From Nitrosopumilus sp. (lineage in GTDB: Archaea; Thermoproteota; Nitrososphaeria; Nitrososphaerales; Nitrosopumilaceae): a DNA stretch of 64,000 bases. The stretch lies in assembly GCA_965223425.1 (NCBI GenBank), contig OZ245003.1, positions 416,001 to 480,000 of the forward strand, written 5' to 3'. The notes below the pieces were generated by a model. The model had not been told where the DNA came from and ran no database searches. It was given only the letters and a program-made list of their open reading frames with translations. Below, piece by piece: positions 5,815 to 58,984 of the stretch; position 1 is the stretch's first letter, and each line of letters starts with the position of its first letter. Both the position numbers and the translations under genes were made by a program.

Positions 5815-5878
5815 GTGTATTGTAAAATTTTTTAAAATAAAAAGCTCTGTTTTAAATAATTCAGAGAGAAAAAGAGGT

Positions 5879-19747: not shown

Positions 19748-19911
19748 ACTGTGACACAGTACTTCATTTATAAAAATGATGATCCACTCTCTTTGAACCG
19801 CTTTTTGCAATAATTTATGCACCTTTTCCTGCATATTGACAATTGAGATAGAAAATGAATTAGATGATGACGATGGCAAGTAGCCACACATTCTTTTTTC
19901 CTTCCCAAGTT

Positions 19912-38934: not shown

Positions 38935-39657
38935 TTATTCATTTTCATCAATAGATACAAATGTTATACTAGATTTAAATTCTTTAATACCTTCTGAATT
39001 TTGTTGTGAATTATAAACTTCAATAAATTTTGAAACTATCTTCCTATCCCATAATTCGATATTATTTTTTTGTGCTAGCTCTTTTGCAGAATTTGTAAAT
39101 ATAGAATTTGTAACCACAATTCCTTTGTGTACATTATACCATGCAATTGCTCCTAAAACTTCTTGAACAGCACTGTTGGTTACTTTTTTATCTATGGAGA
39201 ATCGTTTGGTCTGAAGAACTAATTTTTCATCACCTCTTTTAGCAAGTATATCTCCTCCTTGATCACCACTACCTCGAGTTATGCTAACATCAGTAAATTT
39301 GTTAAATTCCATTATTTTCGCAATGAAACTTTCAAAAGCAAAACCATCTAACTTGTCTGCATCAAAGACAGATATTTTTTCAAAAGATTCTTTATTTTTT
39401 GATGTGTTTTGGACAGGAATGGTTGATAAATCAATGTCAGAAAGTTCCAAATCTAACAATTCAAGAAGTTTTCTAGCCTCAAAATTTTGTCCAATTATTT
39501 TTGGTATAATATGCATTGCAAAATCTGTTTTAGATTCAGAATTCGTCATATTATGATCACATGCGTAATGATAAATTGCATTGTGAAGAGTTTTTTCACC
39601 TTCAAAATTACCCCAAAAATTAGTTAATTCATCAACATTAGTAAAATGTGCACACAT
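38935..39657 (-). CDS. Mrr-like (Mrr_cat) restriction endonuclease domain protein
   Basis: LDGFAFESFIA...TRGSGDQGGDILA...LQTKRF...AVQEV...VVTNSIFTNSAKELA...IELWDR. Confidence 0.9.
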   Translation of the reverse strand: MCAHFTNVDELTNFWGNFEGEKTLHNAIYHYACDHNMTNSESKTDFAMHIIPKIIGQNFEARKLLELLDLELSDIDLSTIPVQNTSKNKESFEKISVFDADKLDGFAFESFIAKIMEFNKFTDVSITRGSGDQGGDILAKRGDEKLVLQTKRFSIDKKVTNSAVQEVLGAIAWYNVHKGIVVTNSIFTNSAKELAQKNNIELWDRKIVSKFIEVYNSQQNSEGIKEFKSSITFVSIDENE

Positions 39658-39658
39658 A

Positions 39659-41416
39659 TTATCGCCATCCTCCTTTCTTATCTATTATAATTTTCTTCAG
39701 ATTTTTATGATAAACTATGATTTTACTACCTAACATTTTTTTTGCTTTATAGATACAGTATTGGTTATTTTCAGATAATTCCCATTTTTTATATTTCTTT
39801 AAATCCGAATTTGTCGCAATAACCTTCTGAACTAAAGAATTGTCCCTTTCTACCTCCGATAAACTTGAGCAACTCTTACATAATTTGTCTCTTAGACAAT
39901 TGTTACTGTATATCTGTTCACAGAATTTGCATGTTGTTGAATCCTTTGTACAGTGAATTTCATCACAAATAGCACAAATTTGTCTATCATTTGGACAAAA
40001 TTGTTTATTACATTGAAAACATATTTCAAAGTCTACACTACATGTTCGTTTGTTACACCCATAACAAGAAACAATAGATCTATTACAAAATTTCTTTTGA
40101 CAATATTGACAATTATCATTACAAAAGAAGCATGTGATTTTAGAGCAATGAGAACAGTGCATTAGATGTTTTTCACAGGTTAACTCGTTACAAAAATTAC
40201 ATTGAACAGAACAATCAGTACATACACCTTCTTTGCAAATATAACAGGGGTTAAGTTCAGAAGTACACTCAATACACACATCTTTTTGACATTTGACACA
40301 GTGGTTTACACATAATCCACATATTACATGCGAGTTTACACACAAATAGTTTTTTTCTGCCTGTTTATTACAAATCTCACAAATTAGTATGAATTCTTGT
40401 GAGGGTTCGAAGAATTTAGTTTGAATCGCTTTCTCAGTAAATTTATTTTTTAATGTAATTTTGCAGTTTGATGAACTATACGAATAAGCAGTTCCCGCAA
40501 TTAATGAGAAATCAATTATGGGACGATACCTCTTTTCAATCTGTTGAATCTGTACTTCTTTATCTTTGGTTAATCTCTCAATCTGTTTAATTGCTTTATC
40601 CTCTGCTTTTTTAATTCGTTCCGATTGTTTTTCTTTTTCTTTAATATATTTATTTTGAGTATCTACATAGCGTGCATTAATTATTTTTCTATCAAACTCT
40701 TTTAGTTTTGATTGTTGATATGAGACATCACCATTAATTTCTTCAAGTCGCCTAATATGAGCTTGATTCAACGAATTCGAATCTTGAGTGATGCTATCTC
40801 GTGTTTTGGAAACATATTTCGTTGCTAATGGTTCCATCTCAATTTCTAATGATTTGGTAGCATTACTGTAACAGTAATCTATTCGTGGATCGTCTTTTTC
40901 ATATCTAATTGTGCCTAGTTCTGCATCTAATTGAATTTCAGAGGGAAAATCAAGCGGCAATAGAGTTTCAAAATCAATGTCTATCCATCTTAGCATGGAA
41001 ATACTTTTGATGCTTTTTACGGTAATATTGAAATAAAATCTAATCGCCATTTTCATATCTTCTGAGAAATTATCCAAAGTCACATGACAGTTGTGAGTAG
41101 GTATTTTATCCAAACATTCTGTTGGTGATTCAATTTGTTTTTTTAAATGACCCCAGGTTACTGGTGCCTGTTTTTTGATTTCACCAAGTATTATTGCAAG
41201 AAAGTTACTTCCCGGAACTACCCATTCACATGAATGAACATCAGCTACTGAATGCTCAAAAGTTATTCTCTTTGTTATTCCACCAAACAATGACTCATAA
41301 TCAGTTGGAAAGGTAATCGTGTAAAGTCCGTGAGTCTCATCTATTGCAGCATTGATTTTTTTCAAAAAGCTTAATGTTAAATCTTTTGAATATTCCAAAA
41401 GTATTTGATCATCCAA
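39659..41416 (-). CDS. SNF2-partner protein (YqhG-like N-terminus, coiled coil, long array of CxxC zinc-binding repeats)
   Basis: KRITFE...VVPGSNFL near the N-terminus. About a dozen C-x2-C-x4-C repeats at a ~14-aa period. Confidence 0.7.
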   Translation of the reverse strand: MDDQILLEYSKDLTLSFLKKINAAIDETHGLYTITFPTDYESLFGGITKRITFEHSVADVHSCEWVVPGSNFLAIILGEIKKQAPVTWGHLKKQIESPTECLDKIPTHNCHVTLDNFSEDMKMAIRFYFNITVKSIKSISMLRWIDIDFETLLPLDFPSEIQLDAELGTIRYEKDDPRIDYCYSNATKSLEIEMEPLATKYVSKTRDSITQDSNSLNQAHIRRLEEINGDVSYQQSKLKEFDRKIINARYVDTQNKYIKEKEKQSERIKKAEDKAIKQIERLTKDKEVQIQQIEKRYRPIIDFSLIAGTAYSYSSSNCKITLKNKFTEKAIQTKFFEPSQEFILICEICNKQAEKNYLCVNSHVICGLCVNHCVKCQKDVCIECTSELNPCYICKEGVCTDCSVQCNFCNELTCEKHLMHCSHCSKITCFFCNDNCQYCQKKFCNRSIVSCYGCNKRTCSVDFEICFQCNKQFCPNDRQICAICDEIHCTKDSTTCKFCEQIYSNNCLRDKLCKSCSSLSEVERDNSLVQKVIATNSDLKKYKKWELSENNQYCIYKAKKMLGSKIIVYHKNLKKIIIDKKGGWR

Positions 41417-41418
41417 GA

Positions 41419-43182
41419 TTAATTCTCCATCGAAGATAATTTAAAATTGGAAAATACTTTGTTGTCAAATTGCATTATTGTATCATTGATTTCTTCTTTT
41501 TTATGAGACCATTTTTCTCCAAGAGCAGAGAATTTATTTTTTAAATCAACTTTGGATGTTGCTGTCATATAGGATTCAAATATTTCTGAAGGCATCTTAC
41601 TGAGCCCATCATCCTCAAATAACAAATCAAGATCACCAATGGTCATTTTAAACAAATTAATTTTATCAAAAAGTAATTTTAGAATGTATTCTTCAATTGT
41701 GCCAATTATGGCTAAATTGTGAATATGTACATCTTCTTCTTGACCAATACGATGAACTCGTCCAACTCTTTGCTCAACTCTCATTGGATTCCAGGGTAAA
41801 TCATAATTGATCACATTACTACAGAATTGAAAATTTTGACCTTCTCCTCCTGCTTCAGTAGAGATCAAAACTTGGATGTCACGTTTAAAATTATTTACTG
41901 CAGTATCTCTTTCAGAAGTGGATAAACTACCATTAAATTTTGTAGTTTGAATTCCGTTATCTTCTAGGGCATCAAAAATATAATTTTGGGTGTCCTTAAA
42001 TTCTGTAAAAATAAGATGTTTAGATTCAGGATTTTCCTTAATTATATTTTCTAGACATTGCATTTTAGAATCAACCCTGATTTTATCAGTCAAGGCTAAA
42101 ATTTCCTCTAATTCAAGCTTGGATTCAGGAAATTGACTAATTTTCTTTTGTATTGCACCTCTTGTAGCTGCCGAACTACTAGAAATCTGTCTCTGTAAAG
42201 TCATTAATGGTAAAATAAAGTGCTTGCCTTCCATTTCTTTTACCCATAGATTTCTCACAAATTCTGTGGATCTATTGTAAAGTTCGACTTCATCCTCTGT
42301 TGTATCAAGCAAATGAGTATGAGGGATTCTATCTGTAAATTGAAGGTATTTTCTAACTTCGCTTCTAGTGGTTCTAATTACTACTTGTTTTAACAAGTTT
42401 TGTAATTCATATCTTTTTGAAGGATCAATTTCACGAAATTGCTTATCTAACGTATATGTTGATGCAAAATTATTCCAAGAACCAAGTATTCCAGGTCTTA
42501 TAATTTCTACCATGTTATACAATTCTTGTATATTATTTTGAATGGGAGTTGCAGATAACAAAAATATGAATTTTTTTGGTAATGTTTTGATAAACTTGTG
42601 AGCTTGTGTAGCAGAGTTTTTTAATCGATGAGCTTCGTCTACAATTACTAAATCCCATTCTATAGAATTTAATTTTTCAGCATTCTTTGGTATTACTGCA
42701 GATGGTAGCGATGAGATTAGCATATTATGTTCATCAAAATTTTTAAATCTATAATCATCTTTGTTAACGATAAAATCTAATTCAAATTTTGATTTTAATT
42801 CTTGTTGCCATTGAGTCCTTAATGACGGAGGAGTCAAAATTAAAGCATTTTTTATCAGGCCAGTTACAAAATATTCTTTTAACAAAATTCCAGCTTCAAT
42901 TGTTTTTCCAAGGCCAACTTCATCTGCTAGCAAAACCCTACCATTAAAATCATTTTTAACTAATTTTGCTGCCATGATTTGATGATCTAAAATTTGGATT
43001 GTAGCATTTAATGATCTTTGAATGGTTAAATCTCGAGTATGTTGACTGTTTATTATTTCATATGCTTTTAAAATATTTGTTAGACTATCAGATTCATCAA
43101 AAATTAATTCTCGTAATTTTTTCTTTACATTATTACGATCTGAATAAATTAACTCAGCAAGGTTATCTTTATTCCAATCCAT
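41419..43182 (-). CDS. SNF2-family helicase/ATPase (YqhH/RapA-like)
   Basis: LLADEVGLGKTIEAG, VDEAH, LSATPIQN, STEAGGEGQNFQ, YDLPWNPMRVEQRVGRVHRIGQ. Confidence 0.95.
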   Translation of the reverse strand: MDWNKDNLAELIYSDRNNVKKKLRELIFDESDSLTNILKAYEIINSQHTRDLTIQRSLNATIQILDHQIMAAKLVKNDFNGRVLLADEVGLGKTIEAGILLKEYFVTGLIKNALILTPPSLRTQWQQELKSKFELDFIVNKDDYRFKNFDEHNMLISSLPSAVIPKNAEKLNSIEWDLVIVDEAHRLKNSATQAHKFIKTLPKKFIFLLSATPIQNNIQELYNMVEIIRPGILGSWNNFASTYTLDKQFREIDPSKRYELQNLLKQVVIRTTRSEVRKYLQFTDRIPHTHLLDTTEDEVELYNRSTEFVRNLWVKEMEGKHFILPLMTLQRQISSSSAATRGAIQKKISQFPESKLELEEILALTDKIRVDSKMQCLENIIKENPESKHLIFTEFKDTQNYIFDALEDNGIQTTKFNGSLSTSERDTAVNNFKRDIQVLISTEAGGEGQNFQFCSNVINYDLPWNPMRVEQRVGRVHRIGQEEDVHIHNLAIIGTIEEYILKLLFDKINLFKMTIGDLDLLFEDDGLSKMPSEIFESYMTATSKVDLKNKFSALGEKWSHKKEEINDTIMQFDNKVFSNFKLSSMEN

Positions 43183-43368: not shown

Positions 43369-44497
43369 AGACTTTATGCATAATTGAATCATAAAAATTT
43401 TTCCGAAAGACTTGGATCTATTTTGATCGCCGCAACAGGTAGGAATCTCCAGAACAGACGATACGCAGGCTGCAAAGGGGGCTCAAGCAAAAGGACACAG
43501 CAATCAAGCAGAATAACAGAGCAATCAAGCAAAAGGACACAGCAATCAAGCAGAACAACAGAGGAGCAATCAAGCAGAACAACAGAGGAGCAATCAAGCA
43601 GAGCAACAGAGGAGCAATCAAGCAGAGCAACAGAGCAATCAAGCAAAAGGACACAGAAATCAGCAGGCGCGAGAAGACAGTCGACTCACTCCGCAAGCAG
43701 CTGCTGCTGCGCGAGGACAGTCTGTGGACCGCTACAGATGCAGGCCGTCCTGATACGGACACGTCGCCGTTGCCGCCGCTGCACAGCAGGGTGGTGATCC
43801 GCGGCATACTGCATAGCAGCGCAAAGCTTGCAGGGATTACCGTATGACCTTGACCAGTTTGACTACACCTGCAATGACTTTGTGGCAGAGTCAAGGAAGC
43901 ACGGCGGCGGCGGCGGCGCGCCGCTCTTTTCAGAGGACGAAACACCGGATCCCGGAAACCGCTGCCTGCCTGGCCGCAGGTCCGTCCTGCTGCTTGCGCT
44001 GTTCCGCAAGCGCTCAAACGTGACGCAGGATGCACTGGGAGTGCTGTTTGATGTGGATCAGTCCACCGTGTGCAGGTACCTCCGGTTCGCAGATTCCGTG
44101 CTGGCAGGGATCCTGCCTACTGCAGACAGGATGACCCGTCTGGTAAAAAAGGCCGAGACATCAGAGCAGCTAGAGCAGCTAATGCCGGACAGAACCATCA
44201 TAATTGACGGCACCGAGGTGCCAAGGCAGCGTCCGCAGGACAAGGATAAAAGAAAAAACACGTACTCTGGCAAAAAGAAGCGCTTTACGATTAACACCAC
44301 CATAATAACAAACAGGGCAGGCCTGATACTTGCAGCAGGCAGGTCCTTTGAGGGCGGGACGCACGACCTTACCATGATAAGAGAGGATCCGATAGACTTT
44401 GGCAGGTGGTCTAAATCCATGTACAAAAAGGACACTCCGGAAAAGGACAGGATACGGGTACTTGCAGACAAGGGGTACCAGGGAATTGCCAATCACT
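43369..44497 (+). mobile_element. IS5-family element (type A), frameshifted and 3'-truncated by a second IS
   Basis: Left end AGACTTTATGCATAAT. Transposase motifs LGVLFDVDQSTVCR, IIDGTEVPRQRP, YSGKKK, HDL, LADKGYQG. GC-rich. Confidence 0.85.
43484..43662 (+). repeat. 21/24-bp tandem repeats (GCAATCAAGCA core) inside IS5 type A
   Basis: Repeated AGCAATCAAGCAGAACAACAGAGG and AGCAATCAAGCAAAAGGACAC units. Confidence 0.9.
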
Positions 44498-45568
44498 AGA
44501 TGAGTTGCGCAATTGATTCAGTTTGAGTATAATCTCAATATTTCCTAACAACAAGATCCAAGGCTAAGAAACAACCATTTTCAATTCATGTTCAATCACA
44601 CGAAACTAGCAAAAAGACCAAAACGATTCCTGTCAATAACAGGACTGACTGCTCCGCAATTTGATTCCTTGTCAAAAGAAATACAAAAAAAATACAAAAC
44701 TACAGAAGCAAGACGTCTATCAGAAAAGAAAGGAAAAAGAGACATTGGTGCAGGACACAATTTGATCTACCAATCAAAGACAGAGTTCTGATGCTGTTAA
44801 TGTACTACAGAATGTACACAACACACGATATGTCGGGAATGATATTTGACCTGAACAAATCAAATGTGATGCGAGATATCAGATATTTGGAGCCCGCAGT
44901 AAAACAGTCAATCCCAATTCCCGCCAAAAAGTATGCAGATTCAAAAAAGATCAGCGGCATACAGCAGCTCCAAGAGTTCTTCCCAGAACTAATTGCAATC
45001 ACAGACGGTACGGAGCAGCCAATACCGAGACCAAAAAACAAGCGCAAACGTAAGACACACTATTCAGGCAAAAAGAAAAACCACACAGTACAAAACCAGA
45101 TTACGATAAACCTTGACGGAGTCATAATTCACAAACCTGCACATTCACCCGGATGTCGCCACGGTTACAAAATTTACAAATCAAAACATCCGACACTGTC
45201 TGAAGAGCTGTTAAACTTTTATGACCTTGGATATTTGGGGATTGAAAAGGACTTTCCAAAACAGACCAGCATTTTGCCATACAGAAAAAAGAAAGGAAGA
45301 AAGCTAACTGATTCTCAGAAAGAGTGGAACAAATCTCAAGCTAAAGTTAGAATCAGGATAGAGAGCATGTCATTGCACAAATCAAAAAATTCAGAATCAG
45401 CGCATATACATTTAGGAACAGATTGCGTCGTTATGACACCATTAGCGAGATAGTCTGCGGAATTGTTAATTTCAAGATACGGTGGAAGCAAGAGCTTGCT
45501 GTGATTCCATAAAATCAAAAACTATCGAGTGAAAGATGGGATTTTGATTGTAATTGCGCAACTCATCT
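44498..45568 (+). mobile_element. IS5-family element (type B), copy 1
   Basis: TIR AGATGAGTTGCGCAATT. Split transposase ORFs 44588-44791 and 44791-45453 (DGTEQPIPRP, HYSGKKK, DLGYLG). Near-identical inverted copy at 57087-58156. Confidence 0.93.
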
Positions 45569-45883
45569 GATAATTACACTTGGATTCGACATGGGTAATT
45601 GTTGTACCGCCGCCAAGATGTTTTCCGCCTAGACGAAACACGGTCATTTTATCGGTGTCTTCTATGAGATTTGCACCATGTGCATGATTCCTAAACTCTA
45701 CATATGGGAAGGTTCCCTCTCATGTCTGCTCCCCTCACACTTGTATAATCAATACATTCTCTTATTGGCATGTCGTACTTTTGATATACGGAAATTAGTT
45801 CAATTTCAGAAGGATGTGTCAGGAATTTTATGTCCTGTGGGTGACATTTTTGGGCCAACTGGCAATCAAGGCGATGCCGGCAG

Positions 45884-47035: not shown

Positions 47036-47552
47036 ATGATCAATCTCCGGCTTTAAAAGAAAGTATAAAAATAAAATTCCCGCCGAAGATACCGCCAGAG
47101 AACCATGGTATGCCAGTCCACATGCCACATGGCATTGGAGTATTTTCGCTCAAAGCGGACGTACTTGCGCTTCTTTGACTTTGCAGCAGATGGTGCCACC
47201 ATGCCGTTCTTTTTCATTATGCGGTATACTGCGCGGTAGCTTATATCGTGGTTGTCACTCAGTCTTTTTGCAGTGCGCAGGACTCCCACAGGGTCGTCCC
47301 GGTGCGCCTCAGTTACAAGGCGTATCTGGGCAGATGTGGTTGGGACATGCGGCCTGCCCATCTTCATGCGTGTTGTTCTGATTGTCGGAACCTGGCCCAG
47401 CCTTCGCACATGCCTTGCCGTAATGCCAAGATCTCGGGCTATCTGGGATGAAACGACTCCTTTTTTGCGCTGCCTGATTATGTATTGCCGTGATTTTTCT
47501 GTTAGTCTTTTTGTCATGGATTTTTGTGATCGGTACAGCCTGAAATAATCAT
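47036..47552 (-). mobile_element. Internally deleted IS481-like element
   Basis: ORF 47053-47517 has an HTH (SQIARDLGITARHVRR) and RFERKYSNAMWHVDWH, then breaks off. Imperfect inverted ends. Confidence 0.7.
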
Positions 47553-49485
47553 CTATTGTCCTTCTGATCCTAGGCGGACTGACTTTTCGTACAATTGACT
47601 CTTTAGCTCAATGTGGTCAGTTACTTTGAGCAGTGGTGAATTAGGCTCTGGATACGCTCCCAGATCTTTTTTCCAATTCTCCCTGTACTGCCAGAGATAT
47701 TCGCAGGCCTCTGGTGTGATAGATGTCCAGTAACTTTCAGGATCACCGCGATACACCAAAAGGGCAGCACCCTTGAAATTATCATCATCGTCTCTGAAAA
47801 ATATAACATCACGCCACGTAAAATAATCCCATGATTCCAGTCGGAATCCTGCAGAAGAAAACATTGTCAAAATTACCTTGTCTGTAATGCCGCGTGCTGT
47901 GAACATCATTTTTTGAATCTCTTCTCTGGCATATGCCCTATCCTGAGAGTTTACGGGTCTAGAGTGGCGATCATTGAAAATTTCGCCTCAAACACAACGA
48001 GCTAGATACCTGTAGATGTCAAGTTTAATGGAACATGTCCTAAAGTACTCTGACACTGTGTGTTTGAGATCTTCAAGCGTGTCATAGTGTGCTGCCGTGA
48101 TCAGCCTGTACTTGGCCTGCTTCCACAACGCCTCGATGGCACTAAGCTTCGGAGTGGCAACAGGCAGGTAGAGTATCTCGATCTCTCCCTTGTGATCCTC
48201 CAAGTATTTTCTTGCCGCCGCCGTCTTGTGCTGGCCGGCATTGTCCGTTATCAGCAGCACCTTGCCCCACTTGCGGCGGGCCTCTGCCAGGTACCTCACA
48301 AACGTAGGGCCGTCAAACTTGTCATACAGGCGCATCAGTCTGGTGCCGTCATCTGCAAGCGCCCCGTATACGACTGTCTTGTCCCTGCGTCCTGACCTTT
48401 CTATCTCCACGGGATCGCCTATGCGCGACCACAGCCTCTTGCCGTCCTCACCGATCCTTATGAATATCGACTCGTCCTGTATCGCAATCCGGAATCCACG
48501 CCTTTTTGCACGTGAAATGACTGCTGAGGCGTCTTTTTGCCACCGTCGTACCTCGTCGGCGCCTGCACTGTTCCCGTATACTGTCGTGGATGTCTTGCAG
48601 GAGAATCCAAAGACGCGCATTATCCTGCGCATGTTGGACATGCTGTATCTTCTGTTTGTCTTGCGACGTATCTGGTTGCGCAGCTTTCGCGGAGTCGGCG
48701 TGTTCTTTTTGCAAAGCCTGTCGGCCAGCTTTTCTATCAATGCGTACAAGACGTCCGGGCTTTTGCCTCTTCCTGGCGCGTCCCGGAGGCCATCTGCGCC
48801 ATATTTTCTGAACCTGCATACCCACAGCTGGACTGTGCGTTGGTCTACGTTGGCAATATCTGCAAGATCTGCCGTAGAGTGTCCCATGAGGACTCCGCGC
48901 ACTGCCAGCATCCTGTCACGAATCTTGATGTTCTTCTCTGCACGCATGGCCTCCGTCAGTGCCTGTACTTCGTTCACAGCTTGCAGCTGATCTGGTGATC
49001 AATAAGCTTTTCTGTTCAGTCCTGTCTGGAGAGGCGAAATTAATTATAATCGCCACTCTAGGATACAGATGGTATAGACGCTTCCAGTGCAGTGGCACGT
49101 CATTTGTATCCAAGAGTATCTTTATGGGCTTTGTATAGTTGGGAACAGAATTCGGACTAGTCTTGCCTTGGCTTACCCTCCTGTTAAAGTACTTGATGTA
49201 TTCGGCAATAATGTTGGTGCCTGCCTTTGAATCCTTTTCACACAATTTGACAAAGCATTCGGCCTGTGACTCTACGGTCTTGTCAGGTATAGCACACTCC
49301 ATCTTTTTGTACAGATTCAATGGTATCTCTTTGAGGAACCTTGCCAGATTCTTGGTATAATGTCTCTTGGTTTCAGGGTTTTTTATGCCGTCAAGAAAAT
49401 TTTCGTATGGAATGCCTTGGGTGGTTATCTTTTTGAGATCAACATTGAGCATTACGCCCTCAATATTTGAATCAGATTTAAGCAC
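47553..49485 (-). pseudogene. Tyrosine integrase B, interrupted by IS630 and truncated at the IS481-like element
   Basis: Removing the IS630 restores the in-frame sequence HLYPR-PVNSQDRAYAREEIQKMM...SSAGFRL (catalytic Arg box). The gene starts next to the att-like site at 49497. Confidence 0.85.
47962..49058 (-). mobile_element. IS630-family element with apparently intact transposase (47988-48977)
   Basis: TIR GAGTGGCGAT...AATTTCGCCTC with TA duplication. DDE motifs QDES, TDNAGQH, P.LSAIEALW. Confidence 0.93.
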
Positions 49486-49685: not shown

Positions 49686-50942
49686 TTATCTGATCGGTTT
49701 TGGAAGCTCTTGTCGCTTCCAGCTCTTTCCATGAATCTGTTTCAAAAGTCCATCGTGTTCTTCTTTCGGAAGATCAGCTCCTATTAAGTGTGCTATGAAT
49801 TTAATGGCGTTCTTTTTTGCAGGCATTCCCGCCATGATCTTGCCATTTGATCTGATTAATACATTTGACCAGTACCTTGTACGAGGTCTCCAGTCTATCT
49901 TATTCAATCTCTCTATTAGAACATCTCTGTTTATGCGATCATTTAGTTTGCACGCATGTGCGTATCCGCCAACTAGTGCAAGCTGGCCTATCGGCCGATT
50001 TGACAGATAATCTTTTCTCATTTTTATACGCGTCTCATCCCCCTTTTCTGTTGGATCTTTGAGAGATTTTCGCCACACATCAATTCCAGATATGAGTTTA
50101 GTCCACTCCCTGCTTATCTCCTTCAACCGTTGATCAGTTTCGTGTTCAGGTATATTTTCAGGCTTGGATATGGTGGGGATTTTTGAACTACCTAGAAGAT
50201 GTATGCTGGCATCATAAAATGTAGATATGGTCGTAAACTCGTGTGCTGTTATATTAAGCGCATTTTTATCCAAGCTTACCAAACGTTCAGGAATTATATT
50301 GTTGTGTATCATCCGTCTTACTATGATTGACATGGTATTGTCATCATCAGTAATTAGCTTGTTTGCTTTCGTAGTAGGTTTTGCATATTTGTTTATCTTG
50401 TTGAATATGTATCTGGCCTTTTTCTCTTCAAAACGAACTAGTATTACTGCAACCTTTTCTTTTCCCAGATCGGGATTACTTTGGATGGTTGAAATAGAAT
50501 TGTCTCCGCCACCGTCCCCTTTGACGGCCAACTCAAAAGCCTTAGCTCTATGCTGTCCATCAAGAGGAATCAGAATTGCACTTCTAGACATTATAAAAAA
50601 CCCCATATCTTCAACTGCCTCATCGTATAATTTTGGGATGGAATCATCCGTTCCTACAAATTTACCTAGTGGTTCAAATTCCATCTTTTCATCATTTTTG
50701 ACAGCCAAAACTAAGGATCCTGAGAATCTGTTCGGGTCATTTGCAAAATATGGTGCTATATCACGCTTTATTCGTTTCAAATTGAGTTCTCTTTGAAATT
50801 TTGCGTCGAGTTCAAGATCCTCCCAATTTGGAAGATCTGCAGGAAATACAATTCGGCTGATTAATTCCGCAAGTGGCATAGAGGTAAGAAAGTAATCTGT
50901 ATTTCCAAACCTTGCTCGTAGTGCAGGATATGGGCTAGACAT
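49686..50942 (-). CDS. DndB-like DGQHR-domain protein
   Basis: FQRELNLKRI..DIAPY...FSGSLVL...LDGQHRAKA...FNKINKYAKP. Confidence 0.88.
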   Translation of the reverse strand: MSSPYPALRARFGNTDYFLTSMPLAELISRIVFPADLPNWEDLELDAKFQRELNLKRIKRDIAPYFANDPNRFSGSLVLAVKNDEKMEFEPLGKFVGTDDSIPKLYDEAVEDMGFFIMSRSAILIPLDGQHRAKAFELAVKGDGGGDNSISTIQSNPDLGKEKVAVILVRFEEKKARYIFNKINKYAKPTTKANKLITDDDNTMSIIVRRMIHNNIIPERLVSLDKNALNITAHEFTTISTFYDASIHLLGSSKIPTISKPENIPEHETDQRLKEISREWTKLISGIDVWRKSLKDPTEKGDETRIKMRKDYLSNRPIGQLALVGGYAHACKLNDRINRDVLIERLNKIDWRPRTRYWSNVLIRSNGKIMAGMPAKKNAIKFIAHLIGADLPKEEHDGLLKQIHGKSWKRQELPKPIR

Positions 50943-50989
50943 TGTGATTCCTCACATAGTGTTGTTTGCATTCAAATTGTACAGTCATT

Positions 50990-51316
50990 CTAAATCCCCT
51001 GTGTATTAGCATCGGGATGAAACCTCGATATAATTTCTGATTCAATATTCCTAATTTTGGGCTCCGTACTGTCCACATATACAAAGGATATTTTGATCTC
51101 ATTTGGATATGTTTCAAAATATTGTCTTAGTTGTGGATTAGATTCATCATGACTATGCTGTTCAATGCGTCTTTGCATATTCATACTCATTCCAACATAG
51201 ATACACTTACTGCGTAACCAAAAACTATACAGTCCAGCACTACTGTGTACACCATTATGAAAGTTATAATCAAACGACTGTGTCTCGGATTTAAGACGCA
51301 ATATAATTTCAGACAT
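50990..51316 (-). CDS. GIY-YIG nuclease family protein
   Basis: AGLYSFW....IYVGMSMNMQRRIEQH...ESEIISRFHPDAN. Confidence 0.82.
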   Translation of the reverse strand: MSEIILRLKSETQSFDYNFHNGVHSSAGLYSFWLRSKCIYVGMSMNMQRRIEQHSHDESNPQLRQYFETYPNEIKISFVYVDSTEPKIRNIESEIISRFHPDANTQGI

Positions 51317-51320
51317 TATT

Positions 51321-52958
51321 TTAGACACCGCAAAGACCCTCGCATTCACTTGCCATAACATCATCATAATTCTGGGCATTGTTCAGATCCACCTTGCCTA
51401 ATTCTATTCGTGAATGATGCAGATATGCCTTTCCTCGTAACGATCCCTGTATTTTTGGAATATTACGTAGTGACCAGTCAATCTGGACAGCATCATTAAA
51501 AGAGTCAGGCTCGTTTTCTTTGAGCCATTTCCATTCCATGTCATTATGATATGGACATCCCACACATGCACTGCGGGGTAGTCGACGATCCGGATATCGC
51601 TCCTCGAACCAATTGTAAATATTGGCACGTGTCATTTGAAGATCCACAAGCGGATAGCGATTGTCTATCCATTCATTTCTACTGGGTTTTATTCTCTCAG
51701 ATTCATCTGCACTTATTCCTATCCACATCTCAACTTGGACATCTTTGGGTGCACGTCTTCCAGGAGTAAAATTTAGTCGCCTCCTTAATTCCTTGTGTAT
51801 TGGTCTTATCTTGTAATGCGTAGTGCACTGTCTAACTGCTACGGATTTGCTCCCATTTGGATTAATTAAAAATGCAGGTATGTCCATGAACTGATCTCCA
51901 TCAGAATTAACACCATTCAGGATGTTCTCTCTAATGTTTCCAGCAGTTACACGTATTACATCATAGGACAGTTGTTTTTCCAACCATTCCAGATGATCAT
52001 ATACATTTGGAGGCTCCCACTGTGTATCTGCAAATATGGCAAAATCAGGTTTTTCGAGTCCGTTCCACCCTTCTTCGGCCATGAGAGCAAGAACAGTAGA
52101 TTGCGCACCTGCACCCAGACTCAATACCTTGACTTTTTTTCCACCTCGAAGATATTTACGATCATTTACTGATTCTGGTTTACACATTTGACGATCTGCA
52201 CTGCGTCGTACAATCCTGCGTAAATTTTCCCTGTTTAGAGAATCAATCAATCTTGCACCTGCTACCCTGTTTAGCTCCGTTAGCATAGAAATGTATCCTA
52301 CACGATTTATTCCTTTTGCCTCGTTGTGCAGTGCTCGTACACATTCTGACATAGTCATGTAATTTTTTAATACAGCATATTCCAAGGTACGATGATAATA
52401 TTCCGGAGTTTTGGCGAATGTTTCTAATGCCTGTTTTGCATCAAATGCACCTGCTGAATGTTCTGCAGCTTTGGTGGCCGCGTGTGCAATCCACCATGTT
52501 CTGCCTGAAATGCTTGATTTCCAAATACCTGTTCCCTCGTTATTTTTTGTTAACCAATGCTTGCGCATATTATTCAAGTTAGTATTTTTGGTGCTTGGCC
52601 ATCGAGTAATCCCGTACTGGTGGAGGTGGAAATGATTTAGATATGCTAATACGTGTTGATCAGATGCTAATCTGGGCGTCATACCTTCAAACGAATTGTA
52701 AAAATCAAGTGCTTGATTATCCGCCATATGTGTGGGCATATTTGCTGGTACAGCAAGATCTATAGGCTTGATTATGTATGCGCCAGTAGGTTCACGGTAA
52801 TTATCAATCTTATATTTGACTAGCAAATCCTCAAAATTTGCATCGAGATTCTTGTAATGGTCAATATTTTCTTCAAAGTTATGATACAAATGAACAAATG
52901 CATCCTGTGTGAATTTGTACAGAGGTTGTCTTTCAGTCTGAGTCATCGTTTTCTCCAT
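51321..52958 (-). CDS. Fusion: DUF6339-like N-terminal domain + phage-type PP-loop/PAPS-reductase-like Cys-rich domain
   Basis: N-terminus MTPRLASD..VLAYLNH...Y..TRWP...SGRTWWIA. C-terminus VLSLGAGAQST, FADTQWEP, RQCT..YKI.PI, IGISADE, PRSACVGCPYH, ECEGLCGV. Confidence 0.8.
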   Translation of the reverse strand: MEKTMTQTERQPLYKFTQDAFVHLYHNFEENIDHYKNLDANFEDLLVKYKIDNYREPTGAYIIKPIDLAVPANMPTHMADNQALDFYNSFEGMTPRLASDQHVLAYLNHFHLHQYGITRWPSTKNTNLNNMRKHWLTKNNEGTGIWKSSISGRTWWIAHAATKAAEHSAGAFDAKQALETFAKTPEYYHRTLEYAVLKNYMTMSECVRALHNEAKGINRVGYISMLTELNRVAGARLIDSLNRENLRRIVRRSADRQMCKPESVNDRKYLRGGKKVKVLSLGAGAQSTVLALMAEEGWNGLEKPDFAIFADTQWEPPNVYDHLEWLEKQLSYDVIRVTAGNIRENILNGVNSDGDQFMDIPAFLINPNGSKSVAVRQCTTHYKIRPIHKELRRRLNFTPGRRAPKDVQVEMWIGISADESERIKPSRNEWIDNRYPLVDLQMTRANIYNWFEERYPDRRLPRSACVGCPYHNDMEWKWLKENEPDSFNDAVQIDWSLRNIPKIQGSLRGKAYLHHSRIELGKVDLNNAQNYDDVMASECEGLCGV

Positions 52959-53802
52959 CCATCCGTTTTTGGTTCCATTCTACCATGAGTCCTAGGGGTT
53001 TGAGTTTTGATTTTGATTCTTCTAGTATGTTCTGTGCATGTCTGTTGGCGTTTTCTTTCAGGTCATCATCGATCTGAATATTATGATTGTGTAGTGTCTT
53101 ACGTAATGCTTGTATCCAAAGATGGTCTTCATCATTATCAGTCAGAGTCCGAATAGCATGCTCTATAGCAGTTAGATATAGTGATGCATACAATACAGGA
53201 CCTGCACTTTGACGAAGGCGACGTACTCCTTCAAGAGTCTTATGATTTATCAAGATCGAAATAATATCCTGGTTGGCATCTATGACATATTCTCCTATTC
53301 CTATGGTCGATTTTGCTACCATGCTTATTGCGGCTTGGATCTTTTCTATTGAATCAATTGTAATCTCGTGCTGTTCCCCTATTGCCAATATTGCACCTGT
53401 TGGAAGATCCATTCCATCAGGTCTTAATTTTTGAATTTCATCATCATGTTCTTCGGATTTAAAATTATGTATTTCTTCAGTGGTTACCACATATGGAATT
53501 ATATTTATTTTTCCAGCATAATCTGTCAATTGAAGATCTAATGACCTATGCGTTTCTGTAAAATCAAACATAACTCGTTGATTTGTTTTACTACATTTTA
53601 TCATAGCAAATACTTTTGCTTTTTCTTTTTTGATCATATTGCTTATGAAAACACTGTGTAATTCATAGGATAATTCCAAGTTTATTTTATCTCGGGTGCA
53701 AGTTGCTTTGTTAATCTGCATATTGAAACTACACTCACTGCGATAGTCAAATCCATCTGGACGGATTACTGGATGCGGAAGTAACAGATTTGCATAGCTC
53801 AT
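52933..53802 (-). CDS. Hypothetical protein with N-terminal PHPVI...DY motif
   Basis: Overlaps both neighbours (translational coupling). Confidence 0.75.
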   Translation of the reverse strand: MSYANLLLPHPVIRPDGFDYRSECSFNMQINKATCTRDKINLELSYELHSVFISNMIKKEKAKVFAMIKCSKTNQRVMFDFTETHRSLDLQLTDYAGKINIIPYVVTTEEIHNFKSEEHDDEIQKLRPDGMDLPTGAILAIGEQHEITIDSIEKIQAAISMVAKSTIGIGEYVIDANQDIISILINHKTLEGVRRLRQSAGPVLYASLYLTAIEHAIRTLTDNDEDHLWIQALRKTLHNHNIQIDDDLKENANRHAQNILEESKSKLKPLGLMVEWNQKRMDGENDDSD

Positions 53803-55685
53803 TTTTTCGACTCCAATGATTTGTCAACCTGAATGATTTCCACAATCTCGTATCCTGTATATGACTCATTTTCTGGTATTTCCAAATCTAAAACAATTCG
53901 TTCGTTACACTTTGATGTCATCACTATATGATTTCCCTCTTTTTTTACATCAAATCTGGGTGGAGATATTACATTGACAGCAATTATTGGAATCTCACTT
54001 TCATTTCGTTTTTCCTCTCCGGCTCGCATTATTGCAATATGTATTGGTTTGTCATCATCATGCTTGGGTGTAAATGCAACATGAAGTTTATTTTCATCAC
54101 GAACGATTCTTGGATGTACCAAAAATGGCATATCATGTTTAGATTCATTTTTATCTCCAAGCTGCTTTGATCTAGACCTTGTCCCTTTGTCTGAACCTCT
54201 ACCCGAACGACCCGGAAGATCTACGTCACTCCATGATTCGGGGTTATTTTTTGTCTGTCTTGATGGACTTGGGGTAATTGTATGGTGTTGTAGTTCTATT
54301 CCCTCATTATGACCCAGATTGCTTCCCTTATCTCCACCAGGTGTGGGGAGTATCTCTGCAAGTTCAGGCAATTGAATGTTATTTTCTTCATCCATAGTGT
54401 TGATATGTTCCTTAACAAAATCCTCAATCTTTTTTTGTATCTGTTTCAGATCCTTTTTAGTTGCTTCGCGTTCTCCTTCATCATTAACTCGCTTAAATTC
54501 TATTGCCTGATGATTTGGTGGTTCCATTTCTCGTATTTTTTCATCGGTTTTATCGTCTTGTGCCATAACAACTCCGGCATATTTGGCCCAGCCGCTACCT
54601 ACAGACGTAGTAAATGGATTTTTTTTGAATGATTTTTCATCGGTAATTAACATTCCTCTCCGATTCACGTAAGCAATTCGGTTTGGCAGATCTTCATCAT
54701 GTATATTTAGTTTTACGGTAAATCTACCAATATTTCCCTCGATTGATTGTTTAGTGTTGCTATCTCGGATAATGCGATAATAATGGTGTGACTTTGTCTT
54801 TCTACCGTTTTCAAATATGTTGTCTAGAGTCTCATAATTTATTATTTCAGAATTAATATTAACTTCTAATTTTTTTTCATGAATTGCAACAAAAAAATTA
54901 CGTGCGATTGATTCTTTTGCAATTTTAATCCAATCCTTTACTTTTGGCTCAAACCCAATGATAAAAATGCCACTACCTACGCCATCAAGTCGGAATTCAT
55001 CGTAAATATTTTTTCCAGTTGTTGGTGCAGGTCGTTGATTTTGTAGAAATTTTTCCCTTGTTCCAAAACCTATGTGTTGAAGCATACCATTTGACTGTTT
55101 TGGATTTTCATGTGATGAAATTTTACATCGAATAATGAATTGTTCCATTCGACCTTGTTTTTTTTCGGATGTTTTGCGTTGAAAATAACGAGTTGAGTAT
55201 CCTACGGTTTGTATTGAAGATACCAAATATGGTGCATTTTTTCCAATGCCGAAACTTCCTCCGGACGCACTCATGTTTTTGCTAGTTGTACCCTCATCAT
55301 ATACTAGGGCATTCCATTTTTCATCAACTAATCCTGTTGTGTTAGCATCCGTTATTGCCAACACTTTGATTTCATCTTGTTTTAATGCTTTTAACGCATT
55401 TTGATAGAATTTGATACCTCTTGCATTTTTTTCTTGTTTGGTACGTTCTAGTGCCTTGTCCATATGCTTTGCAAGATCTTTGGCAGCAATCTTATGTGCA
55501 GGTATTGTTATTTCGGATATATTTACTACTACGGGTTTATTTTTTTGTACATCGGCAGCATCAAGGGAGTTCTGTATTATTTCCCTTATCGTACTGTCCC
55601 ATGCATCAACTCGAAAATGCTCTTGGCTGCTATCGTTGAAACCATATAGTACCCCTCCTCCGGTGGGTGGAAAATACCACTTCAT
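53799..55685 (-). CDS. GHKL/HATPase-like (MORC-type) ATPase domain protein
   Basis: REIIQNSLDA (N-box), ITDANTTGL (G1), GGSFGIGKNA (G2). Confidence 0.8.
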   Translation of the reverse strand: MKWYFPPTGGGVLYGFNDSSQEHFRVDAWDSTIREIIQNSLDAADVQKNKPVVVNISEITIPAHKIAAKDLAKHMDKALERTKQEKNARGIKFYQNALKALKQDEIKVLAITDANTTGLVDEKWNALVYDEGTTSKNMSASGGSFGIGKNAPYLVSSIQTVGYSTRYFQRKTSEKKQGRMEQFIIRCKISSHENPKQSNGMLQHIGFGTREKFLQNQRPAPTTGKNIYDEFRLDGVGSGIFIIGFEPKVKDWIKIAKESIARNFFVAIHEKKLEVNINSEIINYETLDNIFENGRKTKSHHYYRIIRDSNTKQSIEGNIGRFTVKLNIHDEDLPNRIAYVNRRGMLITDEKSFKKNPFTTSVGSGWAKYAGVVMAQDDKTDEKIREMEPPNHQAIEFKRVNDEGEREATKKDLKQIQKKIEDFVKEHINTMDEENNIQLPELAEILPTPGGDKGSNLGHNEGIELQHHTITPSPSRQTKNNPESWSDVDLPGRSGRGSDKGTRSRSKQLGDKNESKHDMPFLVHPRIVRDENKLHVAFTPKHDDDKPIHIAIMRAGEEKRNESEIPIIAVNVISPPRFDVKKEGNHIVMTSKCNERIVLDLEIPENESYTGYEIVEIIQVDKSLESKK

Positions 55686-56020: not shown

Positions 56021-56299
56021 CTAGGAAGTCTTGGATGATTGTTTCTTAATTCTCGTCTTTAGTTTTGTACCGTATTTTGAGACATATTGTTTGCGTATAT
56101 CTGCTGGAAGAAGTGAAAGAAGCTCTTCAAATGAATCCAAATAGTGATCTGCGCGTTCTTTAGAATAGTTCAGTGCCTTGATAACATTCTCAGTCTTTGC
56201 TTTTGAAGGATTATTTTTGGGTGCAATGTAAAGCGATTCTTTACCTGCCTGAAAGTATAGATATTCAACATCCTTTGAGATCTTGACTGTGAGTGTCAT
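56021..56299 (-). CDS. Small hypothetical mobile-element protein
   Basis: Clean 92-aa ORF divergent from the integrase. Confidence 0.6.
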   Translation of the reverse strand: MTLTVKISKDVEYLYFQAGKESLYIAPKNNPSKAKTENVIKALNYSKERADHYLDSFEELLSLLPADIRKQYVSKYGTKLKTRIKKQSSKTS

Positions 56300-56399: not shown

Positions 56400-58831
56400 A
56401 TGATAACATCCAAAAAAACACCTCATAATACACTAGATTTCTATTGCGATCATCAAAATTTCCCTAAAAGTGAAATAAAGGAAAATCATAATCAAACCAA
56501 GGATGAAGTCGCCGAGAGGCTAACCGATATGGGAAAAAATAAACTTTCAACAAAAAAAGACACTGCCAAACTACAAACATCAAAAAAACAAAGAATGCTT
56601 AGAAATCCAGAGATCAAAAGATGGTATGACAATCTTGCAAGAGGTTCATTGATTACAGCCGATGTGAGACTAAGACGTCTTGACAGGTTTTGTCAGATAC
56701 ATCAGATGACTCCGATGGAGCTAGCAGAGCTTGGAATGAAAGACCTAAGAACCGCAACAAATCTTTTAGAAGACCACATTACATGGATGGAAGACAAGTG
56801 CTATGCACCCGGATATACAAGCGGTTTTGTAAAGACCATAAAGTCATGGCTTGCACACTTTGACGTAGAGATAAAACGCAAAATCAAGATAAAAAACCCC
56901 AACCAGACACCAACTCTACAAAACGAGCGTGTCCCAAATGCACAGGAAGTTTCCGAGATCTTTGCAAGAGCATCATTACGCTCTTCTGTAATGATCTCGC
57001 TGATGGCAAAGTCTGGTCTCAGACCTGAAGTTATGGGAAATCATGACGGCACAGACGGACTGCGTATGGACGACCTACCAGATATTAGATGAGTTGCGCA
57101 ATTACAATCAAAATCTCATCTTTCACTCGATAGTTTTTGATTTTATGGAATCACAGCAAGCTCTTGCTTCCACCGTATCTTGAAATTAACAATTCCGCAG
57201 ACTATCTCGCTAATGGTGTCATAACGACGCAATCTGTTCCTAAATGTATATGCGCTGATTCTGAATTTTTTGATTTGTGCAATGACATGCTCTCTATCCT
57301 GATTCTAACTTTAGCTTGAGATTTGTTCCACTCTTTCTGAGAATCAGTTAGCTTTCTTCCTTTCTTTTTTCTGTATGGCAAAATGCTGGTCTGTTTTGGA
57401 AAGTCCTTTTCAATCCCCAAATATCCAAGGTCATAAAAGTTTAACAGCTCTTCAGACAGTGTCGGATGTTTTGATTTGTAAATTTTGTAACCGTGGCGAC
57501 ATCCGGGTGAATGTGCAGGTTTGTGAATTATGACTCCGTCAAGGTTTATCGTAATCTGGTTTTGTACTGTGTGGTTTTTCTTTTTGCCTGAATAGTGTGT
57601 CTTACGTTTGCGCTTGTTTTTTGGTCTCGGTATTGGCTGCTCCGTACCGTCTGTGATTGCAATTAGTTCTGGGAAGAACTCTTGGAGCTGCTGTATGCCG
57701 CTGATCTTTTTTGAATCTGCATACTTTTTGGCGGGAATTGGGATTGACTGTTTTACTGCGGGCTCCAAATATCTGATATCCCGCATCACATTTGATTTGT
57801 TCAGGTCAAATATCATTCCCGACACATCATATGTTGTGTACATTCTGTAGTACATTAACAGCATCAGAACTCTGTCTTTGATTGGTAGATCAAATTGTGT
57901 CCTGCACCAATTTCTCTTTTTCTTTTCTTTTCTGATAGACGTCTTGCTTCTGTAGTTTTGTATTTTTTTTGTATTTCTTTTGATAAGGAATCAAATTGTG
58001 GAACAGTCAGTCCCGTTATTGACAGGAATTGTTTTGGTCTTTTTGCTAATTTCGTGTGATTGAACATAATTGAAAATGGTTATTTCTTAGCTTTGGATCT
58101 TGTTGTCAGGAAATATTGAGATTATACTCAAACTGAATCAATTGCGCAACTCATCTATTGTTATCCACCAAGGAGTGGCAAAGTGCATAAAGACTCCGAA
58201 TCAGATAGTGGTACGAAGTGAGCTCTCAAAAACAAGACACCAATACTTTACGTTTTTGACAACGTCTGGTACAAAGAAACTACTTGCATACCTCAATGAC
58301 AGGCTAGCATATGGCGAGCCACTACATGGAAACTCTGCTGTAGTAGCTCCGGATCACACCCACACACTGAACCGCGGTAGAAATACATTCAAGACATTTT
58401 TGCCTACAAGACAGATAAGCAAGGAGATTCGTAAGACATTCCGACCAAGGTTTGAATGGAGACCTTACATACTGCGCGCCTACTTTGACACCGAGTTGTT
58501 AATTGCAGAGTCCAAGGGAAAAATAGCACATGACTTTAGGGTGTTCTTTATGGGACACAAGGGATCCATGGAAGCAAGGTACACTACCAACAAAGGAATG
58601 CTACCTGAGATACTGATTCGCGAAATGCGCGATTCGTTTGAACGCTCCGAAGAATTTCTTGATTTGGAGACAAACAAATCAGATGCAATACAGGATCAAA
58701 AACAAGAGATGCACAACATCATTCATGATGCAACACCAGACGAGCTTGATTCTATGCTAGAGGTACTACAAAGTACCGGCAAGATGAACCAAGTCAAAGA
58801 GTCGTTGCTTCAGACCGTGCAGAACAGATGA
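56400..58831 (+). pseudogene. Tyrosine integrase A interrupted by IS5 type B
   Basis: Removing the IS and one ATT gives the continuous sequence DDLPDI-VIHQGVAK. Motifs KSGLRPEV, YILRAYF, FMGHKG, ARYT. Confidence 0.9.
57087..58156 (-). mobile_element. IS5-family element (type B), copy 2
   Basis: Same TIRs as 44498-45568. 3-bp TSD ATT at 57084-57086 and 58157-58159. Confidence 0.95.
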
Positions 58832-58909
58832 TCATGCAAGGCTGGATATTTGTAGGAGCACTACCTAACGGAAAAATCGTGCTAAAAAGGCCCGAGCCCG
58901 ATGTGGGAG

Positions 58910-58984
58910 TGGGCCCACGGGGATTTGAACCCCGGATCTTCGCCGTGTAAGGGCGACGTCATAACCTACCTGGACTATGAGCCC
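58910..58984 (-). tRNA. tRNA-Val(TAC), integration target
   Basis: GGGCTCA...TCGCC-CTTACAC-GGCGA...GGTTCAAATCC...TGGGCCCA. Confidence 0.95.

Follow-up and report, generated by a model that had tools for sequence, protein, structure and literature searches.

Operon Layout

The window analyzed here is a 64,000-nucleotide (nt) stretch of the genome of Nitrosopumilus sp. (GenBank assembly GCA_965223425.1, contig OZ245003.1, hereafter C1, positions 416,001–480,000), and positions are numbered from its first letter unless stated otherwise. Its minus strand carries, from 49686 to 55685, five intact, co-oriented open reading frames (ORFs) in the order A-B-C-D-E, exactly where a preliminary description of the same DNA had placed them (Table 1). 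Genes A and B overlap by 4 nt, B and C by 26 nt, and C and D by 59 nt if the longest ORF is taken for D; a gap of 47 nt separates D from E. Alignments suggest that the real start of D may lie further inside its ORF. The G+C content of the operon (0.36–0.39) is that of the rest of the window. A 92-amino acid (aa) ORF upstream of A (56021–56299) was considered as a member of the system and rejected, as it has no relatives in 79 related loci; it is also unlike a conserved gene of ~76 aa that precedes A on plasmids.

Gene C Joins DUF6339 to an SspD-like PP-Loop Domain

The first half of gene C matched Pfam DUF6339 (E = 2.5e-18, residues 85–251) and the PADLOC model PDC-M33C (1.2e-21). The second half matched PADLOC SspD (1.2e-17), with residues 277–494 aligned to profile positions 2–199 of 277. 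The fusion of DUF6339 to a PP-loop domain, as it had been read from the DNA, is therefore borne out in a single protein. A match to PAPS_reduct (4e-4) reached 20.9 bits, slightly below the cut-off of 22.5. In full-length homologues of gene C, DUF6339 was recognized in 50 of 50 and PAPS_reduct in 49 of 50; DUF4007, the SspB domain, was found in none of the 50 at E values up to 1. Gene C had no NCBIfam match, hence it is not a DndC equivalog (TIGR03183).

In the AlphaFold model of gene C (mean predicted local distance difference test [pLDDT] score of 89), the N-terminal half is all-alpha and had no counterpart in the PDB among the top matches listed. The C-terminal half recovered PAPS reductase (CysH), GMP synthetase, the [4Fe-4S] protein LarE, NcsA, and TtuA with a Foldseek probability of 1.0, at template modeling (TM) scores on the target of about 0.5. 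A sequence search of solved structures with the gene C profile gave no match at E 0.01. The 50 sequences compared share, without exception, S280-L-G-A-G-x-Q-S287, D311, C378, C465, C468, C539, and C543. The five cysteines and the main motifs align, at 26–28% identity, with those of two SspD proteins from metagenome loci, one of them confirmed by PADLOC (1.5e-133) and the other called SspD by its 69% identity to the first. The PP-loop domain thus appears, on these alignments, to be a distant member of SspD or of a sister family. The earlier proposal of a PP-loop, probably Fe-S, enzyme that writes a non-methyl mark finds partial support in this likeness and in the shared cysteines.

Genes A and B Complete a PDC-M33 Set

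PADLOC PDC-M33A matched gene A over residues 2–608 (1.8e-87), and PDC-M33B matched gene B (1.7e-32). PDC-M33 is one of 145 predicted defense candidates (Payne et al., bioRxiv 10.1101/2024.01.29.577857); it is defined in PADLOC-DB and probably also in the supplements to that paper. As PDC-M33 prescribes, its three models are matched by adjoining, overlapping, co-oriented genes in the same order (A, B, and, for the third model, the first half of C). The catalogued C, however, is a stand-alone DUF6339 protein of ~250 aa (model lengths 247–346) that usually lies near a cytosine methylase, whereas C in the window has 545 aa with the additional SspD-like domain, is followed by D and E, and has no methylase near it.

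Gene A had no match in Pfam or NCBIfam, and none of 31 relatives had a Pfam match. The GHKL motifs sought were the N-box ExxxNxxD, the G1 box DxGxG, and the G2 box GxxGxG; residues of gene A that are invariant in 31 homologues (E35/N39/D42, D113/T116/G118, and G143/G146/G148/K149) fit these Bergerat motifs. The profile of gene A gave a weak signal against the N-box of Topo VI-B (E 0.24) and, with hhalign, against a HATPase_c_3 family (probability 22.6%). None of its neighbors in the ESM Atlas carried a family. Gene A is likely a GHKL ATPase, to judge from the motifs together with the weak profile signals. The same assignment had been made in the preliminary description; its motif part stands, but there is no Pfam match and the profiles lend it little weight.

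Gene B, for which Pfam also gave no match, had been named after an HPV motif, and residues 9–12 do read P-H-P-V. Across 37 homologues P11 is invariant and P9 nearly so, and the motif is better written as a conserved P-[HY]-P. Further conserved residues are D19, Y20, R76, W229, and Q257. The AlphaFold model (pLDDT 92) has a β-sandwich region and a helical tail; a fold search of the PDB returned low β-sandwich matches (TM ≤0.26), with none nuclease-like among the matches listed.

Relatives of Genes D and E Lie beside Canonical sspBCD

Gene D scored above the cut-offs of both Pfam GIY-YIG (25.8 bits; cut-off 22.6) and GIY_YIG_2 (27.1 bits), in agreement with its earlier description as a GIY-YIG gene. 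Invariant in 13 homologues are G49, Y51, Y61, G63, R71, E113, and N125, and D has the tyrosines of the GIY and YIG motifs as well as the catalytic Arg, Glu, and Asn. Gene E matched Pfam DndB (1.4e-36, 126.7 bits) and the DGQHR domain model TIGR03187 (90.5 bits; cut-off 58.85); its score against the DndB equivalog TIGR03233 (83.4 bits) is far below the cut-off of 328. The earlier call of a DndB gene holds in the sense of a divergent family member, and E is the fourth and weakest DndB-family match in the host genome. No variation was seen among 16 homologues of E in Q50-R51, D128-G-Q-H-R132, and F180/N184. Prediction of a complex of the PP-loop domain with D and E gave, with E as partner, a score of 0.02, which speaks neither for nor against binding.

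The pair was also approached from the other side, through 80 metagenome loci anchored on relatives of gene E (28–40% identity); many of these contigs are short (1–4 kb). Neither A nor B was found in any of the 80. A GIY-YIG gene lies directly upstream of the E relative in 18, and SspD, SspC, and SspB were detected in 19, 10, and 4 loci, respectively. One locus (L108) matched PADLOC SspB at 2.8e-99, SspC at E = 0, and SspD at 1.5e-133. Another (L106) reads sspB-sspC-sspD-GIY-DGQHR on one strand and so has the same tail as the window operon. From these neighborhoods, D-E appears to be a cassette found together with genuine Ssp writers, in the position that SspE holds in sspBCD-sspE. Because the cassette elsewhere accompanies canonical sspBCD, the system in the window is best filed as an Ssp-like variant.

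Further gene pairs were seen beside sets of sspBCD, GIY-YIG, and DGQHR genes, at 3479–6250 of L108 and 9062–11800 of L115. One such pair consists of a 628-aa protein with a DndB domain and a 294-aa PDC-M34B-like protein, and the other of a 620-aa methyltransferase-like protein and a 291-aa GIY-YIG protein.

The Fused Gene C Is Patchily Distributed and Changes Partners

Relatives of gene C numbered 542 proteins at E ≤0.001 among the candidates examined; the best 120 of these are all full length, with 49–100% identity. At least 558 relative loci were confirmed in a collection of species-representative genomes. The distribution of the fused form is patchy and accessory: it occurs in 10 of 301 genomes of the class (this genome counted) and in 1 of 67 others of the genus. 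The nearest relatives of the locus are in metagenome-assembled genomes of Cenarchaeaceae and Nitrosopumilaceae. Lineages typical of sponge microbiomes, in which phage pressure is thought to be high, are named among the relatives.

For comparison, 79 relative loci were kept and searched by tblastn with the five window proteins. All five genes co-occur in the order A-B-C-D-E in eight of them, all from Nitrososphaerota, which settles in the affirmative whether the set exists outside the window. Gene B lies beside a full-length fused C in 48 loci, mostly of Chloroflexota, and A is present too in 47 of those. In 30 others the PP-loop protein stands alone, with A, B, and DUF6339 all missing. Of these 30, 13 continue with GIY-YIG and/or DGQHR and 13 others with a trio of SF2 helicase, HATPase_c_3 GHKL ATPase, and PLD nuclease. 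The fused loci are flanked by GmrSD/DUF262-type (SspE-like) genes in 17 cases (PADLOC Orf5, HEC-05, HEC-06, and weaker SspE matches), by PbeABCD in five (PbeA 2.9e-195, PbeC 8e-49), and by the helicase, GHKL, and PLD trio in six; in three Dehalococcoidia loci (L020, L026, and L029), divergent GIY-YIG and DGQHR genes come after the fused C.

A quick maximum-likelihood tree of the PP-loop domain (IQ-TREE; 71 rows; approximate likelihood ratio support, SH-aLRT, only; eight loci that had lost the C ORF are absent) united 45 of the 46 fused forms in a single group (support 88). The stand-alone proteins, of two architectures, form two clades with support of 100 each, and the eight thaumarchaeal rows, the window included, form one clade, also with support of 100. 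Near-identical A-B-C sets carry different partners. The partners swapped around A-B-C, on either side of it (GmrSD/SspE-like genes, PbeABCD, and the helicase, GHKL, and PLD trio), are of kinds typical of systems based on phosphorothioate (PT).

DndC is found in none of the five genomes with PbeABCD. The fused C is the sole SspD-like gene of two (G303 and G305), and a third (G304) has a single further full-length SspD-like gene, a stand-alone one from this PP-loop family. A canonical SspD lies elsewhere in the genome of G302, and G301 has an intermediate match. Should Pbe modules depend on a PT writer, three of the five genomes have no candidate for it other than this PP-loop family.

Unfused PDC-M33 Lies near Methylases

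A tblastn search of plasmids with gene A gave 26 records, and nine loci were inspected. A-B-C is present in all nine, and its DUF6339 protein has about 250 aa. Six (Deinococcus, Priestia, Paenarthrobacter, Planococcus, Arthrobacter, and Halorussus) have a cytosine-5 methyltransferase no further than about 4 kb away, in line with the statement, in the preliminary description, that the trio of ATPase, HPV, and DUF6339 proteins neighbors cytosine methylases. The Ligilactobacillus locus has another DNA methyltransferase directly downstream; no methyltransferase is annotated at the Lactococcus and Halobacterium loci, for which the plasmid gene tables are incomplete.

A conserved gene of ~62–77 aa stands directly upstream of PDC-M33A on five plasmids (L082, L085, L097, L098, and L099, at about 5700–5980 of each), with 38–60% identity among five of the six compared. 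It may be a fourth PDC-M33 component or a regulator.

Comparison with Known Systems

The operon most resembles SspABCD-SspE of Vibrio and E. coli. Its PAPS-reductase-type PP-loop enzyme is closest to SspD and has the same cysteine pattern, its tail consists of a ParB-superfamily protein and a nuclease in the place of SspE, and it has no dedicated desulfurase; many Ssp systems depend on IscS (PMC8092258). In contrast to Ssp, none of the five window proteins matched SspB (the DUF4007 DNA-binding nickase), SspC (an Orc/Cdc6-type AAA+ ATPase), or BrxC; A, B, and DUF6339 of PDC-M33 occupy the places of SspB and SspC, with DUF6339 fused to the PP-loop domain, and the host is an archaeon. The likeness of D-E to SspE/GmrSD is one of functional analogy only: in SspE/GmrSD, DUF262 (a DGQQR ParB-like NTPase) is fused to a DUF1524 HNH domain, whereas DGQHR and GIY-YIG are separate proteins here. 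The DUF262/GmrS and DGQHR domains are described as homologous ParB-like modules (PMC4619093), and PMC10853773 treats SspE as the counterpart of DndB. SspE and SspFGH are both reported to be missing from 83.9% of sspBCD modules (PMC8092258).

BREX type 4 (BrxP-BrxC-PglZ-BrxL) offers a parallel, in that the writer of a methylase-based system has been replaced by a PAPS-reductase fusion that works with an ATPase. BrxP, in which a PAPS reductase is joined to a DNA-binding domain, makes PT together with BrxC, as shown genetically, and with a housekeeping desulfurase (bioRxiv 10.1101/2024.06.03.597175). PT synthesis is described as the work of a PAPS-reductase-type protein, an NTPase, and a DNA-recognizing or nicking partner, with BrxP as an SspD-SspB-like fusion (bioRxiv 10.1101/2024.06.03.597175; PMC12707154). 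The difference lies in the fusion partner, which is DUF4007 there and DUF6339 here, and the five proteins matched no BrxP, BrxC, PglZ, or BrxL model at E 0.01. With DndBCDE(A) and its partners DndFGH or PbeABCD, the operon shares a DndB-family protein beside a PAPS-reductase-type enzyme, and PbeABCD adjoins A-B-C in five related loci. Unlike in Dnd, C of the window has no DndC match, DndD and DndE are missing from the window, and E falls below the DndB equivalog cut-off.

No paper was found that describes the five-gene system; its PDC-M33 part is already catalogued as a prediction. DUF6339 and PDC-M33 were not found in the main text of any paper searched, although supplements may list such loci, and nothing was found that joins phosphorothioate, PAPS reductase, and GHKL. 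The combination of DndB, GIY-YIG, and PAPS reductase led to one review, in the consulted passages of which this system is not described. PMC10853773 mentions GIY-YIG (URI) nucleases near Dnd genes, but the terms GHKL, MORC, and Top6B do not occur in it. The PADLOC screen for known systems had a divided outcome: it assigned A, B, and the N-terminal half of C to PDC-M33, and the whole five-gene set is unmatched in the literature found.

A Possible Sulfur-Marking Modification-Restriction System

We propose, with a probability of about 0.5, that the operon encodes an Ssp-like modification-restriction system of a sponge-type thaumarchaeon that uses a sulfur mark, most likely PT. The domain identities, operon logic, conservation, and partner patterns, together with the published PT systems, are the grounds for this reading, under which the operon would probably be an undescribed variant of PT-based immunity. 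The C-terminal PP-loop/Fe-S domain of C would take sulfur from a housekeeping cysteine desulfurase, activate DNA with ATP, and install the mark, as do SspD, DndC, and BrxP. This writer domain would work tethered to the PDC-M33 machine (the DUF6339 domain, the adaptor B, and the ATPase A), and A, B, and DUF6339 would replace the SspB (DNA recognition and nicking) and SspC (ATPase) of Ssp operons. In methylase-linked relatives the PDC-M33 proteins presumably scan DNA and tell marked from unmarked. Downstream, D (as GIY-YIG nuclease) and E (as ParB-like DGQHR protein) would form a read-out module that nicks unmarked invader DNA, a two-gene, split counterpart of the ParB-like NTPase and nuclease of SspE/GmrSD. 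An exchange of writers favors the proposal: unfused PDC-M33 lies near methylases, and the window has none. The preliminary description's candidate for a new modification/defense system survives as a restriction-like module with an SspD-like domain, but the trio was already known to PADLOC, and the whole is better placed as a variant of Ssp than as a novelty.

Several observations weigh against this proposal. The PP-loop domain is 24–28% identical to canonical SspD and reaches neither the DndC nor the BrxP model at E 0.01. A is not a P-loop NTPase, the signals that place it with GHKL fall short of significance, and the absence of SspB/DUF4007 and SspC means that the known PT chemistry is not simply transferable. 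Unfused PDC-M33 occurs without any PP-loop and, given the 30 stand-alone loci, the PP-loop enzyme does not oblige a PDC-M33 trio. Adjacency to GmrSD-like or Pbe genes may reflect clustering in defense islands; GmrSD-like HEC-05 and HEC-06 are described as stand-alone defenses that are often embedded in other systems (bioRxiv 10.1101/2024.01.29.577857), and strict PT-dependence of Pbe-type modules has been doubted (PMC10853773). A class-V aminotransferase (cysteine desulfurase) lies within 10 kb in two of the 79 loci, one of the matches being weak. The host already has three complete dndBCDEA clusters, which would account for PT in this organism without an additional writer.

In the main alternative the system is the same but its parts are distributed the other way round, with D (as nickase) and E (as ParB-like NTPase) helping the PP-loop writer in place of SspB and SspC, and with A-B-DUF6339 carrying out restriction of all but marked DNA, presumably also its role beside Dcm when unfused. 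The stand-alone PP-loop proteins with GIY-YIG and DGQHR fit such roles, as they form a clade of their own (13 loci, support 100) whose operons have no other ATPase or nuclease; moreover, unfused A-B-C adjoins methylases that need no helper, and PT synthesis requires a PAPS-reductase protein and an NTPase (bioRxiv 10.1101/2024.06.03.597175). Relatives of D-E, however, adjoin complete sspBCD writers that already have a nickase and an ATPase. When the folds of B and C were compared, no nuclease domain was recognized in B or among the top listed matches of C, so that A-B-C has no evident cutting part. We regard the exchange of roles as unlikely, if still worth bearing in mind.

It is rather improbable that the SspD-like domain, by itself or tethered to PDC-M33, installs a mark other than PT, such as a thiolated or otherwise adenylation-dependent modified base, with PDC-M33 as a mark-agnostic reader-effector plugged onto writers of 5-methylcytosine or sulfur. 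Fe-S PP-loop enzymes such as TtcA, TtuA, and NcsA do thiolate RNA bases, the fold search also gave NcsA, TtuA, and [4Fe-4S] LarE, and the PP-loop family is distant from SspD, DndC, and BrxP. Its stand-alone genes pair with restriction-like trios without helpers of the SspB/C or DndD/E type, and the three Dnd writers of the host already provide for PT. Yet the best family match is SspD, with cysteine and motif positions in common, and the partner genes are of the kinds found in PT systems (D-E with sspBCD, Pbe, and SspE-like genes). We give just as little credence to a chance juxtaposition of independent defenses, in which PDC-M33 would act as an effector by itself, the PP-loop domain, D, and E would be unrelated neighbors or regulators with no mark to link them, and the variable downstream genes would reflect nothing but shuffling in defense islands. 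Defense systems are often embedded or adjacent (bioRxiv 10.1101/2024.01.29.577857), near-identical A-B-C sets do swap partner genes, and the locus lies in an island rich in insertion sequences (ISs), beside an SNF2/Mrr module. Against mere juxtaposition, DUF6339 and the PP-loop domain form one polypeptide in at least 120 full-length homologues and in 48 of 79 loci, the operon genes overlap, and the combination of PP-loop, GIY-YIG, and DGQHR is seen in three distinct clades of the PP-loop domain and again beside canonical SspD.

What differs here from catalogued PDC-M33 is its fusion to an SspD-like domain, with D-E in addition. Were the Ssp-like proposal to hold, Dnd, Ssp, and BREX type 4 would be joined by a further family of sulfur (PT-type) DNA writers, one built on a non-P-loop, GHKL-like ATPase. 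The PDC-M33 candidate would gain a testable logic, that of a machine coupled to an exchangeable DNA mark (5-methylcytosine or sulfur), and GIY-YIG with DGQHR would be one of the missing restriction partners of sspBCD modules. A non-PT mark, if that were the true product, would mean a new DNA modification chemistry and a defense chassis with exchangeable epigenetic writers.

Genomic Setting

The host genome (2.64 Mb in two contigs, with a full-length archaeal small-subunit rRNA match) holds the operon in an IS-ridden island beside tRNA-Val. The preliminary description had made it the cargo of a tRNA-integrated element. That idea was not sustained: the tRNA gene is adjacent, but it has no repeat, partial copy, or att-like sequence elsewhere in the window, and no integrase was found among the ORFs scanned (the small ORFs between 45.6 and 47 kb were scanned in part). 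The operon is bracketed by two inverted, 98%-identical IS copies, and a composite transposon was considered and likewise rejected. The right-hand copy splits one gene into halves (56400–57092 and 58100–58831), neither with a Pfam match, which correspond with 64–65% identity to a 420-aa gene that stands intact beside the operon in a Cenarchaeum locus (L003). Since the right-hand IS interrupts this neighbor, the IS copies are later insertions and not the operon's vehicle. A 532-aa paralogue of the split gene also lies beside the operon in L003.

As previously noted, the window has no DNA methyltransferase (none of 23 genome matches to PF00145, PF01555, and PF02384 lies within C1:416001–480000) and neither DndD nor DndE. 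A class-V aminotransferase is likewise not found in it. The statement on DndD and DndE holds for the window: outside it, the host genome has three canonical dndB-dndC-dndD-dndE clusters, all of them complete and accompanied by a DndA-like cysteine desulfurase. A 703-aa DndD/PbeC-like ORF lies at 869–871 kb of the host genome.

Table 1. Positions of the operon genes and of surrounding features (window numbering, except for the last row)
Feature	Position	Strand	Length or extent	Description
Gene A	53799–55685	minus	628 aa	PDC-M33A-type, probable GHKL-like ATPase
Gene B	52933–53802	minus	289 aa	PDC-M33B-type "PHPV" protein, probable adaptor
Gene C, whole	51321–52958	minus	545 aa	
Gene C, N-terminal domain	52179–52958	minus	about residues 1–260	DUF6339 = PDC-M33C
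Gene C, C-terminal domain	51321–52157	minus	residues 268–545	SspD-like PP-loop/PAPS-reductase domain
Gene D	50990–51379	minus	129 aa (longest ORF)	predicted small GIY-YIG nuclease
Gene E	49686–50942	minus	418 aa	divergent DGQHR/DndB-family (ParB-like) protein
Left-hand IS copy	44494–45572			DDE_Tnp_4; abuts a third, shortened DDE_Tnp_4 ORF at 43828–44499
IS3-like helix-turn-helix (HTH) fragment	47053–47517			
IS630-like element	47959–49061			DDE_3; 31-nt inverted ends
Right-hand IS copy	57083–58160			DDE_Tnp_4 transposase; 98% inverted repeat of 44494–45572
tRNA-Val(TAC)	58909–58984	minus		found by ARAGORN; borders the island
dndBCDEA clusters	host genome (G000:C1), about 827.5–833.5, 874.5–880.6, and 1630.8–1636.7 kb			

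The IS-rich stretch at 44–50 kb has a G+C content of 0.43–0.47. To its left, the minus strand at 38935–43182 (G+C 0.30–0.31) encodes an SNF2-family helicase (587 aa), a 585-aa protein without a Pfam match, and an Mrr_cat endonuclease (240 aa), which probably constitute a separate restriction-type module in the same island. Nine copies of a 21–24-nt tandem repeat of the type AGCAATCAAGCAGA occupy 43457–43683; they lie inside two overlapping ORFs, 43384–43797 on the plus strand and 43418–44035 on the minus strand, both without a Pfam match. An isolated G+C peak occurs at 18001–20000 (0.487, compared with about 0.35–0.39 around it).

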